This document shows positions 25,266 through 63,531 of a stretch of DNA of 64,000 nt, piece by piece. Position 1 is the stretch's first letter. Each line of letters starts with the position of its first letter. The stretch covers positions 67,100 through 131,099 of the forward strand of contig JADHYN010000001.1 in NCBI GenBank assembly GCA_016782425.1. Direction: 5' to 3'. The notes under the pieces are model-generated. The model was given only the letters and a program-made list of their open reading frames with translations, was not told the DNA's origin and made no database searches. The stretch comes from Candidatus Omnitrophota bacterium. GTDB taxonomy: Bacteria > Omnitrophota > Gorgyraeia > JABMRN01 > RBG-13-46-9. A program made the position numbers and the translations under genes.

Positions 25266-25862
25266 TTAATAATTCTCACACAATACTTCGTAATACGCCT
25301 TGGGGTGCGCACAAGCCGGGCATTTATCCGGCGCAAATTTCCCCTCGTGCACATAACCACAGTTACGGCATTTCCATTTTACAGCCGCGTCCTTCTCGAA
25401 AACTTTCCCGTCTTTTATGTTTTTCAGAAGCTTTCTGTAACGGGTTTCGTGCTCTTCTTCAACTTCAGCTATTTCTTTAAACTGCACCGCAACTTCTTCG
25501 AATCCTTCTTTTCGCGCTGTGCGCTCGGCTTCTTTGTAAAGCTTTGTCCACTCAAGGTTCTCACCCGTAGCCGCGGCCAAAAGATTCTTAGGCGTATCCC
25601 CTATTACCCCTGCCGGGTAAGATGCCTGGATTTGGAGCTCTCCGCCTTCAAGAAACTTAAAAAAGCGCTTTGCGTGTTCTTTTTCGTTATCAGCTGTCTC
25701 TAAGAAAATAGCTGCGATTTGCTCGTAGCCTGCTTTCTTAGCTACGCCACCGAAATATGTATACCTGTTTCTTGCCTGCGACTCACCTGCAAATGATGCC
25801 AGAAGATTCTTTTCTGTTTCGGTTCCTTTAATCGATTTTGTTTTTTTTGCTGTCTCTGCCAT
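25266..25862 (-). CDS. rbr: Rubrerythrin
   Basis: The di-iron domain (GESQARNRY, EKEHAKRF, EEEHETRY) plus a C-terminal CRNCG..CPAC. The start at 25862 has an AAGGAG RBS. The track's longer start lies in a repeat. Confidence 0.9.
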   Translation of the reverse strand: MAETAKKTKSIKGTETEKNLLASFAGESQARNRYTYFGGVAKKAGYEQIAAIFLETADNEKEHAKRFFKFLEGGELQIQASYPAGVIGDTPKNLLAAATGENLEWTKLYKEAERTARKEGFEEVAVQFKEIAEVEEEHETRYRKLLKNIKDGKVFEKDAAVKWKCRNCGYVHEGKFAPDKCPACAHPKAYYEVLCENY

Positions 25863-38890: not shown

Positions 38891-39622
38891 TCAAGCTATT
38901 TCTTCTATCTTTTTTGCGATAATGTTATCGTTTTTCAATGAAAAAACAGGCTTACCGTGTAAGGCCATGTTCTCTATGGTGTTATCGTATGGCAACGTAG
39001 CTTTTACTTTAAGTTCTGTTTTATCTATTTCCTTTTGTAAAGGACCAAGGTCCTCTTTTGCCTTATTTACAATAAGGGCCTTTTCCTTTGTTTTTATCTT
39101 TAATTCATCCACGAGCCTTGAAATTCTCGCCGCCGAGCGCATTCCGACAGCAGTAGAATCGCTCACTATAAAAAGTCTGTCCACGGCGCGGACAAGGCGC
39201 CTTGAGAGATGCTCCATGCCCGCCTCGTTATCGATAATAATATAGTCGTAATTTTTCATCAGACGCGCTATAAGGTCGCGTAGAAGGTTATTAATAAAAC
39301 AATAGCACCCGGGTCCTTCGGGCCTGCCCATGCTCAAAAGGTCAAACCCTTCCTCTTCGTTCAGTATTTCCTGTATTTTCATATCAAGGTAGCGGTCCTT
39401 TGTCATGCCCTTCGGGATGCTTTCTGAATTTTCAGATATGTCGTCAACTATCTCCACTATGCTTGAAACATTCTTCACGCCGAGAACCTCACCGAGATTC
39501 GCATTGGGGTCAGCGTCTATAGCGAGCACAGAGCCCGCCTTTTTGCTCTTAAGGGCTTTAACAATCAAAGCTGCGAGAGTGGTTTTGCCTGTTCCGCCTT
39601 TTCCGGCTACTGCTATTATCAT
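38891..39622 (-). CDS. cooC: CODH/ACS nickel-insertion ATPase (CooC/AcsF family)
   Basis: GKGGTGKTT P-loop and the GPGCYC metal motif. Confidence 0.85.
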   Translation of the reverse strand: MIIAVAGKGGTGKTTLAALIVKALKSKKAGSVLAIDADPNANLGEVLGVKNVSSIVEIVDDISENSESIPKGMTKDRYLDMKIQEILNEEEGFDLLSMGRPEGPGCYCFINNLLRDLIARLMKNYDYIIIDNEAGMEHLSRRLVRAVDRLFIVSDSTAVGMRSAARISRLVDELKIKTKEKALIVNKAKEDLGPLQKEIDKTELKVKATLPYDNTIENMALHGKPVFSLKNDNIIAKKIEEIA

Positions 39623-39639
39623 TGATCTTTTTTTATATT

Positions 39640-39752
39640 GATTACACTGATTCTCTGCTTCTAATAAGATGCAACCAAGATTACACAGATAAAATATAAT
39701 CTGCGTAATCGATGTTGCACAATTTTTGAGCAGGAAATCTGTGTAATCATTT
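39640..39752. repeat. GATTACAC-type nested palindromic element, copy a
   Basis: GATTACAC occurs at 39640 and 39679. Its inverse G(C/T)GTAATC occurs at 39703 and 39741. Positions 39716-39751 match 41741-41776 at 34/36 nt. Confidence 0.65.
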
Positions 39753-39753
39753 T

Positions 39754-41682
39754 TTATTTTACGCTAGGAAACTTCTCCAGGTTCGTATGCGGAAAAAATA
39801 AACTTGAGATGTATTCATCCATGTACGCCGGATCCTTGCTTAATTCGACATATGTCATTTTTCTTGCCGTGTCTTCAGCCTTTTTCATAGTATCGTATGA
39901 AAGCAAAATCTCGCGTGAACCTATAAGCGAGCTGTTCCCCACGAATTTGAATTTCTTCCTGTCAACGTCAGGTAAAAGGCCTATAGTAACGGCGTTTTCT
40001 ATGTCAAGATATGTGCCAAATCCTCCGGCTATGTAAATTTTATCGATTTGGTCAAATGTAAGATTGAATTTTTTCACGAGGATTGCTGCCGCCGAAAAAA
40101 TAGCCCCTTTTGAACGTTTTATGTTTTCGATGTCGCTTTCTTTTATCACAATATCGTACCCGCAGCATGCTTTATTCTTAGGAACTACCACATATTCTAA
40201 TTCGCCGTCTTTTTTTCTTATCTTTTTCGTCTTGGCATCGGCGTTGAGTCTTCCGTCTCTTTTCATAATGTCTTTTTTAAGCATTTGGGCTAGAAGGTCT
40301 ATATACCCGGAACCGCATATGCCCATTGGTTTTGAGTTTGCTATTGTTTTGACCTTGGCATTAAGCTTTGCATCTATTTCAACACGCTCAATAGCGCCTT
40401 TTATGGCCCTCATCCCGCAGGAAACGCCGCTCCCCTCAAATGCCGGGCCGGCCGAAGCCGAACAGCAAGCCATCCACTCTTTATTGCCAAAAGCGATCTC
40501 GCCGTTTGTTCCTATGTCCAAGAGAAGCGTGAGCGCCTCCTCATTGTCTATGCCGCAAGCTATGACACCGGCTACAATATCCCCTCCCACATAAGTGCTG
40601 ACGCCCGGTATGCATGCCAGAAGCCCGCGCGGATGTATTTTAATACCGGATTCCGCGGCTCTTATGACAGGAACGAAATTAGCTGTTGAAACATACGGCT
40701 CTTTTCTTATGTAGGTCGGGTCAACGCGCAAAAGAAGGTGCATCATAGTGGTATTGCCTGCGCACATAACGCCTGTTACATTATTGAGCGCAACGCCATG
40801 CTCCTCTGTTAACTCCTTAATAATGGAGTTCATGTTATCTATGACAGCGTGGTGCAGCCTTTCCAGGCCGCTTTCTTCCGTAGCGAACATTATCCTTGTT
40901 ATCACGTCATCGCCGAACATTACCTGTTTATTATGCGTTCCTTTTGTTCCGAGGACTTTTTTTGTATTGAGATCCACCAGCTGGCCTGAAACAGTTGTCG
41001 TGCCGATATCAAATGCCACGCCATAATTTTGTTTTGATGTGTTGCCGGGCTCGATGATAACGATCTCCGTAGTTTCATTGCGCTTGCCGAGCGTCACTGT
41101 TACCTTCCAGTCGCTGTGCCGTAAAAGGGCGCCGAGACGCCTTATATTCCTTAAGCCGGCTTGCATTATGGAAATTTTGTATTTTGATTTTATTTCCCGT
41201 ATTAAGCGCTCATAGTCGCTGACCGAATCGTTCAATGTGGGACGAGGCAACTCTGCGTAGACCTTGGTCGATACAGGGCTATGAGTAAAAATGCCTTCGT
41301 CTATAATGGGTTTGCCCTTGTCGACTTCCGCGCTTTCCGAATAAAGCCCCTTCAAGCGGTACACCCGGGCTTGTTCTTTTTTGGTTTTATCAAGCTCAAG
41401 CCTTGATTGAGGCGGGATATAAACTTCCAGATTGCCTTCAACAGTTGTAAGGCAGGCTAAACAAAAATTTTTCTTTTTTTCTTCCGGCGTTATCCGCCCC
41501 GTGGGCTCTGTCTGAAACTTGCCTTTTTTAATGACAACCTTGCACCTTCCGCATACGCCCTCTCCCCCGCAGCTTGAATTTATATAGACACCGGCCGCAA
41601 CAGCGCTTGCCAAAAGGTCCGCACCTTTTCTTACCTCGATCGTCTTATTACTCGGCTTGAAGATAATTTTGCATTTTTCCAT
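39754..41682 (-). CDS. Reductive activator of the corrinoid/Fe-S protein (RACo; [2Fe-2S] plus ASKHA ATPase)
   Basis: N-terminal CGGEGVCGRCKV plant-type ferredoxin motif, and DIGTTT/DIGTNGE ASKHA phosphate motifs. Confidence 0.85.
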   Translation of the reverse strand: MEKCKIIFKPSNKTIEVRKGADLLASAVAAGVYINSSCGGEGVCGRCKVVIKKGKFQTEPTGRITPEEKKKNFCLACLTTVEGNLEVYIPPQSRLELDKTKKEQARVYRLKGLYSESAEVDKGKPIIDEGIFTHSPVSTKVYAELPRPTLNDSVSDYERLIREIKSKYKISIMQAGLRNIRRLGALLRHSDWKVTVTLGKRNETTEIVIIEPGNTSKQNYGVAFDIGTTTVSGQLVDLNTKKVLGTKGTHNKQVMFGDDVITRIMFATEESGLERLHHAVIDNMNSIIKELTEEHGVALNNVTGVMCAGNTTMMHLLLRVDPTYIRKEPYVSTANFVPVIRAAESGIKIHPRGLLACIPGVSTYVGGDIVAGVIACGIDNEEALTLLLDIGTNGEIAFGNKEWMACCSASAGPAFEGSGVSCGMRAIKGAIERVEIDAKLNAKVKTIANSKPMGICGSGYIDLLAQMLKKDIMKRDGRLNADAKTKKIRKKDGELEYVVVPKNKACCGYDIVIKESDIENIKRSKGAIFSAAAILVKKFNLTFDQIDKIYIAGGFGTYLDIENAVTIGLLPDVDRKKFKFVGNSSLIGSREILLSYDTMKKAEDTARKMTYVELSKDPAYMDEYISSLFFPHTNLEKFPSVK

Positions 41683-41700
41683 TTGTGTTTATTTTTATAA

Positions 41701-41776
41701 ATGATTAGACAGATAGACAGTCAATCTGTGTAATCTATACTGCACAATTTTTGAACAGGAAATCGGTGTAATCATT
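41701..41776. repeat. GATTACAC-type palindromic element, copy b
   Basis: atgattagacagat..atctgtgtaatc..atcggtgtaatcatt. It overlaps the acsC stop codon. Confidence 0.65.
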
Positions 41777-43109
41777 TACTAAGATTCCTTAAAAATACCG
41801 GTATCCCCGAGGCCTCGCGCGGGCCGACAATCACCTTTTTGCCGGATTCCTCTTCAAGCTTTCCGCTTAAAACAGACACATAACCCGGGAGTATGACTTC
41901 ATTATGCTTTACTTTATCCTTTAAGCCTAATTTCTCGAATGATTGCGCAATTGTTTCCGCTGTGAACTTGTCCGCTGCCCATGCCGTAAGCACTGACATG
42001 CCCTCTGAATCGCACGTAACTATAAAGGCGGGCACCTTGCTTGACTCTACCTCTCCTTCTACCGTGTAATAAGTGAGAGAAAAATTTGTCGTTATAAGAA
42101 CGGGGGATTTATCCGTAACCTGCCCTATCTCGTAGATTTTCGGCTCCACTTGAAGAGGCTTCTGCGGATCAGTGTATATATTCTGCCTGGCTGTCAGGAT
42201 CGGAAGAACCTGCCACGGGTTTCTTCCCTTCATTACTACTATGCTCGCGTATTTCGCCACGTATGTAGTCGCCTCTATTGCCTCCTCCAGCGGGTTCGTC
42301 GATTCAACAAAAGCGATCACGGGATAGCCAAAAGTTCTGAATGACTTCTTAAGCGCGAGCTTGCGCATTTGCGTGAAATCCCATATTTTTTCCGGAAGGC
42401 CCTTTTTACCCGTATCGAGAACCAGGTCCCGAACGCCCTCGGTATTTACGTTTTTGATGAGCGCCTCAAGTTCCTCAAGGCTCGGCGCGCTAACAACGAG
42501 TGGAGCCTTATATTCCTTAGAAAGACCGGCCATTTCTTTAAAGTTTTCTTTTGTCGCGCGGCATATAAGAGGGGCTTTTCCTTTTGTCTCTTCCAGGCCT
42601 ATTTTCATTACCTGAGCGTCATCGGTAACCAAAGCAAGCGGCAAATCAGACGCAGCCAGGACTAATTTGACTGCATTTGCAAATTTATTTCCATCACCGC
42701 TTTTACATAATACGGAGATTAGGTTTACTTCTATTTTCTGCCCTACCCTCTCGAAGTTGAGCTTTTTTATTTCATCGATAGATTTCTTCATATCGTCTTC
42801 GCTCAATGTATCTTCTATGCTAAAGCCTATGCCGGTAGGATGGTAGAACTTTTCCTCATGCCTGAACATAACTGTTTCATTTCCAACCTCGAGCTTCGCC
42901 TCTCCCACCCCTACCGTAATGAGTTTGATCGGAGGCTCGGCAGCGCTTTCGAGAGATTTTTTGGCCGTCTCCGATACGTGCGGGCACTTATCAAGCGCAA
43001 CCTTCTTCGCGGCAAGCTGCATGGCGAAAGCAAGGCACGTCGGGAACCCGCAGTCTTTGCAGTTTGTCTTGGGCAAAAGTTTATATATTCCTAATCCGGA
43101 TAATGCCAT
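41772..43109 (-). CDS. acsC: Corrinoid/Fe-S protein large subunit
   Basis: N-terminal CKDCGFPTCLAFA [4Fe-4S] motif and 445 aa of CdhE/AcsC-like sequence. Confidence 0.9.
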   Translation of the reverse strand: MALSGLGIYKLLPKTNCKDCGFPTCLAFAMQLAAKKVALDKCPHVSETAKKSLESAAEPPIKLITVGVGEAKLEVGNETVMFRHEEKFYHPTGIGFSIEDTLSEDDMKKSIDEIKKLNFERVGQKIEVNLISVLCKSGDGNKFANAVKLVLAASDLPLALVTDDAQVMKIGLEETKGKAPLICRATKENFKEMAGLSKEYKAPLVVSAPSLEELEALIKNVNTEGVRDLVLDTGKKGLPEKIWDFTQMRKLALKKSFRTFGYPVIAFVESTNPLEEAIEATTYVAKYASIVVMKGRNPWQVLPILTARQNIYTDPQKPLQVEPKIYEIGQVTDKSPVLITTNFSLTYYTVEGEVESSKVPAFIVTCDSEGMSVLTAWAADKFTAETIAQSFEKLGLKDKVKHNEVILPGYVSVLSGKLEEESGKKVIVGPREASGIPVFLRNLSK

Positions 43110-62954: not shown

Positions 62955-63531
62955 AATTTTCTCCTCCATTGGTAAAATATTCATCGCGCTCCCATTGGCC
63001 AGGATTATTTATTATGTATTCCCGAATACGGTTTGAATCTTGCTCATCACGGATTACATGTTCATAAAAATTTCGTTGCCAGAGGTGTTTACCGAATCGT
63101 GGCCAATTATTGATTTTTACGTTACGGATGTATTCATTGGTTGTAATGGATTTAAACGCACCAATAATTTCGCCCAACGTAGGGGCGACCTTTATGGTCG
63201 CCGGGGAGGTGGCCGTATGGGCGACCTTTATGGTCGCCCTATCGTTTATTCCGTTAAGGGCACCCACAAGGGGTGCCCCTACGATAACGATGATTCCGTG
63301 TAAATGGTTTGGCATGACGATGGATTCATCTACCTCAACATTTGGAAAATGTTCCGGTAATTTCCGCCACCATTCGTCAACCATATATCCCTCGTTATTT
63401 AATATCATTTTGCCGTCACTCACATCGCCAAATATGCATTTACGGTCGTTTACACATACGGTCACATAATACATGCCATCTTGTGTATAATCGTAATTTT
63501 TTAATCTTATCGATTTTCGGTTGCCTGACAT
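62929..63531 (-). CDS. REP-associated tyrosine transposase (RAYT, IS200/IS605-like Y1 HUH family)
   Basis: HUH motif MPNHLHGII and a C-terminal WQRNFYEHVIRDE..YIINNP Tyr region. Its start overlaps the metF stop (TAATG), and its tail overlaps the folD RBS and start. Confidence 0.8.
   Translation of the reverse strand: MSGNRKSIRLKNYDYTQDGMYYVTVCVNDRKCIFGDVSDGKMILNNEGYMVDEWWRKLPEHFPNVEVDESIVMPNHLHGIIVIVGAPLVGALNGINDRATIKVAHTATSPATIKVAPTLGEIIGAFKSITTNEYIRNVKINNWPRFGKHLWQRNFYEHVIRDEQDSNRIREYIINNPGQWERDEYFTNGGENYERTVIRR
63179..63290. repeat. REP cluster copy embedded in frame in the RAYT gene
   Basis: It encodes VGAPLVGALNGINDRATIKVAHTATSPATIKVAPT, between the HUH and Tyr motifs. Confidence 0.75.

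Follow-up and report, generated by a model that had tools for sequence, protein, structure and literature searches.

The window analysed here is a 64,000-nt stretch of Candidatus Omnitrophota DNA. Its minus strand carries an acsC-type gene followed by a RACo-type and a cooC-type gene of the acs operon (Table 1). A first-pass annotation had pointed out near-identical 36-nt stretches directly behind the acsC and RACo stop codons and had read them either as a structural repeat or as paired coupling mini-ORFs. We found that positions 39716-39750 and 41741-41775 (both on the minus strand) match one 35-nt pattern with no mismatch outside its two variable positions, while no shuffle of the window contains a match. 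The 34/36 identity originally given holds once the A preceding the 35-nt pattern is counted. The position relative to the upstream stop codons is also as described: the RACo TAA (39754-39756) is followed by AAA and an ATG (39748-39750), and the acsC TGA (41772-41774) overlaps an ATG (41773-41775) as ATGA. The G of the first of these ATG triplets is base 1 of a 12-mer, GATTACACAGAT. At the second junction the acsC TGA gives the T and shares its G and A with the first 12-mer of copy 2, overlapping the first two bases of that copy.

On the minus strand the RACo-cooC junction reads, in order, F1, a 26-nt spacer, F2, an 8-nt loop, R2, a 27-nt spacer, R1, a 17-base A-rich tail and the cooC ATG, the right spacer being an inverted image of the left one. 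The copy behind acsC has the same order minus the outer reverse arm R1. The further direct and inverted GATTACAC copies noted earlier are present in both regions. The suggestion that they form nested hairpins applies well to copy 1, which folds into a single stable rod (-48.7 kcal/mol, z = -9.2), and poorly to copy 2, which is missing its outermost arm and folds weakly (-16.2 kcal/mol, z = -2.4). A scan of positions 39000-42500 with Rfam covariance models gave only chance-level matches elsewhere in the region, all with E > 0.3. A promoter and terminator scan of the window copies found no sense-strand site within the elements.

Table 1. Positions of the two repeat copies, their parts and the adjoining genes in the window
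Feature	Position	Strand	Basis
Copy 1, complete F1-F2-R2-R1 foldback element, 109 nt, between RACo and cooC	39640..39748	-	rod fold
Copy 1 outer forward 12-mer F1 (GATTACACAGAT); preceding AT makes the 'ATG' of mini-ORF 1	39737..39748	-	
Copy 1 left 26-nt spacer, mini-hairpin of 8 pairs with conserved T.T mismatch	39711..39736	-	alignment A1, covariation
Copy 1 inner forward 12-mer F2 (GATTACGCAGAT)	39699..39710	-	
Copy 1 central loop, 8 nt; position of the GxxExxY gene in full-length relatives	39691..39698	-	
Copy 1 inner reverse 12-mer R2	39679..39690	-	
Copy 1 right 27-nt spacer, inverted mini-hairpin module	39652..39678	-	row win_c1_R of A1
Copy 1 outer reverse 12-mer R1	39640..39651	-	
A-rich 17-nt tail without Shine-Dalgarno motif, copy 1 to cooC ATG; missing at relatives' empty junctions	39623..39639	-	
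Copy 2, truncated (F1, spacer, F2, loop, R2; no R1), between acsC and RACo	41703..41773	-	z = -2.4
Copy 2 spacer, 26 nt, with mini-hairpin	41736..41761	-	row win_c2_L of A1
A-rich 20-nt tail, copy 2 to RACo ATG	41683..41702	-	
Mini-ORF 1, 29 codons, chance open frame, unsupported as gene	39661..39750	-	
Mini-ORF 2, 26 codons, chance open frame, unsupported as gene	41695..41775	-	
cooC-type gene, downstream of copy 1	38891..39622	-	
RACo-type gene, between both copies	39754..41682	-	
acsC-type gene, upstream of copy 2	41772..43109	-	

The 12-mer is not confined to the acs operon. The assembly that contains the window (G000, a MAG of 1.32 Mb in 49 contigs, 82 % complete) has 16 exact occurrences of GATTACACAGAT compared to 0.16 expected. 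With up to two mismatches allowed, eight clusters of at least three units are found, corresponding to the window pair plus six more copies. Five of the eight clusters are of a long form with 26-nt spacers (both window copies, C12:19995, C26:10064 and C42:38324), and all five lie between co-directional genes in one orientation relative to transcription. The other three clusters, on C35, C38 and C44, have short spacers and are each bracketed by further hairpins.

To these short-spacer copies (C35:14900-15120, L151; C38:2590-2790, L152; C44:35860-36040, L153) we add some observations. The hairpins on either side have the form AGAGGTCGCTG...CAGCGACCTCT and AGAGATTGCTG...CAGCAATCTCT, and the C35 and C38 units exceed 90 % identity over about 170 nt. 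The three copies lie upstream of groES, beside a Mth938-like gene, and between uvrA and a divergent gene. Bracketing hairpins of similar kind are found at L020, L023, L024 and L050.

The tandem 12-mer pattern is present in 21 of 61 genomes, namely G000 and 20 of 60 relatives sampled across the class, in dozens of copies, while a reversed control pattern gave no match in the same 61 genomes. In the relatives the element usually takes the form F-F-R-R over about 80 nt, successive units being 20-22 nt apart; in the long form the 26-nt mini-hairpin separates the two 12-mers of an arm. Most copies have 5'-TG...CA-3' ends. Pairs between the arms are 92 % Watson-Crick because both arms stay close to the consensus. 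Of 31 copies, 27 sit between co-directional genes, with a median gap of 6 nt from the stop codon to the element and of 20 nt from the element to the next start. In six copies the TGA of the element itself serves as the stop codon. The genes adjoining the copies share no common theme.

Two loci have an unusual structure. At L032 (G007:C53, 1465-1613) two elements stand in tandem and the same gene end of roughly 25 nt (...TTAACGAAATAAAAT) precedes each of them, and therefore a unit consisting of gene end plus element has been duplicated. At L045 (G005:C3, 1731-1823) a GC-rich perfect palindrome, GCCTGCCTGCCGGCAGGCAGGC, is nested in the spacer mini-hairpin and looks like a second small insertion element.

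We compared the acs junctions with those of ten relatives of the family, in which RACo is 74-78 % identical. The RACo-cooC junction lacks the element in G001, G003, G008, G011 and G012: the two genes overlap as ATGA in G003, G012 and G008 and in a similar way in G011, and are separated by a 4-nt gap in the same-genus G001. The acsC-RACo junction is free of repeats in G001, G008, G011, G012 and G013, with a stop/start overlap in G011 and G012 and plain spacers of 10 (G001), 12 (G008) and about 30 nt (G013). In some relatives these two junctions hold arrays of different units (GCACAGAT in G013, AACGGAT in G009 and a related unit in G004) or, in G006 and G002, unrelated GC-rich hairpins. When the stretch of copy 1 from GATTACAC through the tail is excised in silico, the remaining TAA-AAAA-ATG-ATA-ATA-GCA matches the G001 junction. 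The A-rich tails are present in G000 and missing from the empty sites of the relatives. Likewise, the junction before a maf-like gene, occupied in G000 (C26:10064), is an ATGA overlap in G001 and G011. Two copies in G005 are discrete insertions 6-9 nt past the stop codon that retain the native Shine-Dalgarno sequence on their right. The element is thus present or absent at orthologous junctions in different genera, and the tightly coupled ATGA junctions of Wood-Ljungdahl operons tolerate hairpin insertions of 70-110 nt.

Several orthologous junctions hold inserts of other kinds. Before the maf-like gene of G003 (L155, C30, immediately past 7738), the ATGA stop-start overlap is directly followed by a hairpin, ACCCCGTTAGAAAT...ATTTCTAACGGGGT, which is about 55 nt long and ends in GTGA, giving the gene a GTG start where G011 and G001 have a bare ATGA. 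The junction between an aminotransferase and a citramalate synthase (L170, in G000 on C35 behind the gene that ends near 25559) has no insert in most relatives. It is occupied by a GATTACAC copy in G005, by other inserts in G006 and G004, and in G000 by a different hairpin family resembling the arms of the dapF-dapA GIY-YIG element. At the RACo-cooC junction of G013 (L082, C10) the GCACAGAT array begins within the last RACo codons, so that the protein ends in GKHR, not VKK, and ATGAGCA stands on both sides of the insert.

Closer to the window, contigs from three studies carry both copies unchanged and no empty site, and a 96 %-identical strain retains copy 2. A 151-nt 'skip' in sequencing run X1 was considered as an empty allele and rejected: one side measures just 20 letters and 40 foreign letters intervene, so it was assigned to another organism. 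The best relative in a metagenome scan with CooC was 66 % identical, and therefore the scan provided no close strain for an empty-site comparison. No consistent target-site duplication could be read from the A/T-rich flanks: two copies have direct repeats, AAATAT and AAAAT, and others have none. We also considered the A after the downstream ATG as a sign of ATGA duplication; it is found by eye in 8 of 12 cases, not clearly above the A-rich background, and was dropped.

The relatives also contain a larger form of the element. One F-F...R-R copy in G005 has a loop of 365 nt that holds a frameshifted GxxExxY gene, and a PF13366 search was run over the same 61 genomes. Intact PF13366/TIGR04256 genes lie exactly between F2 and R2 at L058 (1492-1869) and L072 (1480-1848), a frameshifted one lies between F-F and R-R at L038/L064, and a gene fragment lies between the arms at L066. 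A variant unit, GATTACAGnGAT, frames PF13366 genes at L055, L052 and L053. More generally, of 26 near-full-length PF13366 loci, 12 have two or more C[AG]C[AGT]GA[AT] units pointing inward on each side. The units are oriented inward in 82 cases and outward in 11, against a background of 0.11 per 135-nt flank. Motif and gene are found together in 13 genomes, the motif alone in 8, the gene alone in 8 and neither in 32 (odds ratio 6.5, Fisher p = 0.002, a p value that overstates the association because the genomes are related). Eight of the 21 motif-positive genomes, one of them 99 % complete, are without the nuclease gene. The G000 assembly gave no PF13366 match, and its eight copies are therefore probably orphans, with the qualification that the MAG is 82 % complete and the unassembled part could hold a gene.

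At L058 (1855-1869, minus strand) the longest nuclease frame starts at an ATG before the inner 12-mer, so that the nuclease would begin with MITQI, as do both window mini-ORFs; at L072 the frame through the 12-mer differs from that at L058.

To see how gene and arms are related, we placed 23 nucleases on a maximum likelihood tree. All five whose arms are of the GATTACA[CG] type fall into a single clade (support 96/92) that spans four host families, and G037 holds both nuclease sub-types, each with its own arms. Mapped on the tree, the unit labels require 11 changes compared to 15.9 after shuffling (0 of 200 shuffles as low). The nuclease lineage tracks the arm unit, and gene and arms travel together. 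This co-divergence speaks to joint travel only, not to recognition, because gene and arms are linked DNA. The cargo protein of the relatives is predicted to be a PD-(D/E)XK nuclease with a Cas4/RecB-like core: its structure model (pLDDT 96) has Cas4 SSO0001 as the top solved fold (E = 1.4e-4), followed by lambda-exonuclease and RecB-type domains, and D61, E71, K73, Q86 and Y90 of the D...ExK and QxxxY motifs are invariant in all 23 sequences.

We looked for nuclease-gene remnants in the loops of gene-less GATTACAC copies and found none that was significant. At the acsC-RACo junction of G009 (L084, C122, 1413-1460), the loop of the AACGGAT-unit element retains about 20 nt that align with a GxxExxY gene at its 5' end. 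The local alignment scores 34, a value that none of 100 shuffles reached, and the match fits an origin by internal deletion of a full cassette.

Relatives of the element enclose a nuclease gene and the same-genus acs junctions are empty; therefore the window copies are best understood as gene-less derivatives of a nuclease-associated foldback element. We consider it likely that both stretches are non-coding copies of a dispersed foldback repeat whose full-length form encloses a GxxExxY nuclease gene. The architecture, the family, the enclosure of the nuclease, the co-divergence of nuclease clade and arm unit and the filled or empty state of orthologous junctions in different genera are direct observations; judged from sequence, the element may also be mobile and have a regulatory role. 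By analogy with SsnA and its NTS repeats, we hypothesize that the nuclease recognizes the unit arrays and that this recognition somehow spreads or maintains the cassette. Gene-less copies would be left behind or carried along in trans, and would survive where nothing is broken, in the short gap that separates a stop codon from the start codon behind it. No transposition machine is known that consists of a lone PD-(D/E)XK nuclease, and therefore the copying step would be without precedent. The copies in the acs operon are presumably co-transcribed with it. Copy 1 would then make a very stable mRNA hairpin between RACo and cooC, and cooC and RACo would start behind an A-rich tail devoid of a Shine-Dalgarno motif.

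The first-pass annotation had given equal weight to a different explanation, coupling mini-ORFs. Spelled out as a mechanism, ribosomes coming off RACo or acsC would start again at the neighbouring ATG and translate through the hairpin, and this would couple the translation of cooC or RACo, the peptide or its translation being the function. Several observations favor this explanation. The translations of 29 and 26 aa are as claimed, each window ATG overlaps the upstream stop or follows it by 3 nt, and the frames are open over most of the element and stop 38 and 12 nt short of the start that follows. The downstream genes cooC and RACo indeed have no Shine-Dalgarno motif, while acsC and the upstream 1265-aa gene have AGGGAG/AAGGAG. 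Our recount of the first 18 codons agrees with four synonymous and three non-synonymous differences, but at least two of the four synonymous changes fall in the covarying hairpin of the window copies, where pairing is preserved or restored: TGC/TGT turns C-G into U.G and CAA/CAG turns C.A into C-G.

We addressed the question by surveying start and frame in 27 copies between co-directional genes, oriented by the flanking genes. The triplet at the mini-ORF start position is ATG in 17 of the 27, GTG or TTG in 5 and a non-start in 5 (GTG in C42, TTG in L031 and ACG in L013, for example). Open frames from that position range from 0 to 41 codons, and the only peptide common to the 27 copies is MITQI, the translated 12-mer. 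Among the 13 long-spacer (class-A) copies, comprising five in G000, L018 in G004 and seven in G005, the frame ends after 8 codons in seven, with a TAA at codon 9 in the loop of the mini-hairpin, and an extra A shifts the frame in L031 and L041 of G005 and in C42 of G000. The dinucleotide AT flanks the palindrome on the left in 17 of 26 copies and on the right in 13 of 26. As it is mirrored at the far end, the AT belongs to the terminus of the repeat. The dinucleotide is self-complementary and represents either a palindromic end or a duplication, in neither case a start codon under one-strand selection.

Codons 6-12 of the mini-ORFs, on the other hand, are a hairpin with compensatory changes. 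We aligned 22 spacer arms (alignment A1) and counted the pairs of the 8-pair hairpin. Three pairs switch without any unpaired cell (CG in 13 arms and UA in 9; AU in 17 and CG in 5; UA in 16 and AU in 6), and one position keeps a mismatch, 19 of the 22 arms being unpaired there. The covariation score is 0.412. Shuffled alignments give 0.159, none of 500 reaching the observed score, and slid partners do not exceed 0.118. Comparing further copies, as had been proposed at the outset, therefore decided for the structural repeat: base pairs covary across the 22 spacer arms, and codons are not kept across the 27 oriented copies. The structural half of the earlier interpretation stands, and the mini-ORF half, with start, frame and length varying among copies that lose the ATG or the frame while keeping the pairing, does not. 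Moreover, relatives couple the same genes directly through ATGA overlaps, and therefore the absence of a Shine-Dalgarno motif is ancestral. Taken together, we regard coupling mini-ORFs as very improbable. As a warning for annotation, short ATG-led frames at Omnitrophota operon junctions can be repeat termini rather than genes.

The hairpin could still act as an RNA element adopted by the host, shielding the upstream mRNA from 3' exonucleases or being a processing site and so setting the levels of AcsC, RACo and CooC. Such a role would be compatible with a selfish origin. The single orientation of the five long-form copies and the slightly greater stability of copy 1 in sense (-48.7 kcal/mol) than in antisense (-45.2 kcal/mol) point in this direction, and REP-type stabilisers are located at a comparable intercistronic position. 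The G.U wobbles, 12 in sense and 8 in antisense, nevertheless show no clear strand asymmetry, the arms are conserved in sequence beyond pairing, copy 2 has lost one arm and barely folds, and relatives have the same operon without the element. We regard an adopted RNA function as unlikely. We think it about as improbable as the mini-ORFs that each element offers four phased 12-mers as operator sites to a DNA-binding host regulator with no relation to the nuclease. A 12-mer conserved across the class with a phasing of 20-22 nt would suit a regulator, and three copies are at promoter-like places, including the ones upstream of groES and between uvrA and the divergent gene, but most copies abut stop codons within operons. 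Their neighbour genes share no theme, the orthologous junctions of relatives are empty or hold other unit families, the arrays surround a nuclease gene of a clade that goes with the unit type, and the window copies have no sense-strand promoter-like site. A REP/BIME-type repeat mobilised by a RAYT (Y1) transposase, or the MITE of an ordinary DDE transposon, would likewise be an intergenic palindromic repeat, could have the 5'-TG...CA-3' ends seen in most copies, and might be served by one of three Y1_Tnp-like matches in the genome. None of the three is near any 12-mer, however, the only gene found inside the arms is the PD-(D/E)XK nuclease (the relatives having been searched for PF13366 only), and target duplication is not consistent; we consider this origin extremely unlikely. 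One weak Y1_Tnp (PF01797) match lies in the window itself (63004-63177, minus strand; E = 0.003, below the family cut-off) in an open frame of 202 codons.

Returning to the nuclease-associated foldback element, a more far-reaching proposal can be made, which from the analysis as a whole we regard as possible yet rather doubtful. The phased 12-mer arrays may be the recognition sites of the GxxExxY nuclease, and gene plus arms may constitute an undescribed self-propagating element that settles between the stop and start codons of operons and leaves gene-less hairpins behind. The acs operon would have been invaded twice and two ancestral stop-start couplings broken, so that cooC and RACo would now depend on a new A-rich leader. 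A literature search found neither the 12-mer nor a paper linking GxxExxY/PF13366 to repeats, and we found no published description, in the literature searched, of the pairing of a dispersed palindromic repeat with a GxxExxY nuclease.

Several known systems share parts of this organization. Coupling ORFs and leader peptides occupy the same place, with an ATG right behind a stop codon, but here start, frame and length differ among copies. MITEs such as the Correia elements of Neisseria are gene-less, about 100 nt long, have terminal inverted repeats, are co-transcribed and can fold in the mRNA. The inverted ends are common to both, whereas here we found no DDE transposase relative and no clear target duplication, and the cargo of the full-length form is a nuclease. 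REP, BIME and REPIN sequences are palindromes scattered over intergenic regions between co-directional genes, frequently as inverted pairs, and are linked to one enzyme gene (RAYT) framed by the repeats. The element described here has these features in common with them, but its enzyme is not a Y1 transposase, the Y1-like genes of G000 are not framed by the repeat, and it is built of 12-mer arrays instead of hairpins headed by GTAG or CGTC.

A GIY-YIG link was considered for the window family and rejected: none of the four GIY-YIG genes of G000 is flanked by the 12-mer, and as these genes have other arms they represent a different family. The closest published analogue in design is nevertheless the Ssn system. 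There, a small stand-alone GIY-YIG nuclease gene is framed by a short hairpin-forming repeat (NTS/SRM) with further copies dispersed over the genome. The repeat is found together with the gene in different taxa, and cleavage by SsnA has been demonstrated (Chenal et al. 2025, PMC11893778). Both systems have a nuclease gene framed on both sides by a dispersed hairpin repeat, and a co-occurrence of repeat and gene. They differ in the fold of the enzyme, GIY-YIG there and PD-(D/E)XK here, and in the arms, which are a single hairpin there and arrays of at least two phased 12-mers here. GxxExxY (PF13366, TIGR04256) is a large family without an assigned role, and the linked repeat provides a concrete candidate substrate for it, comparable to NTS for SsnA.
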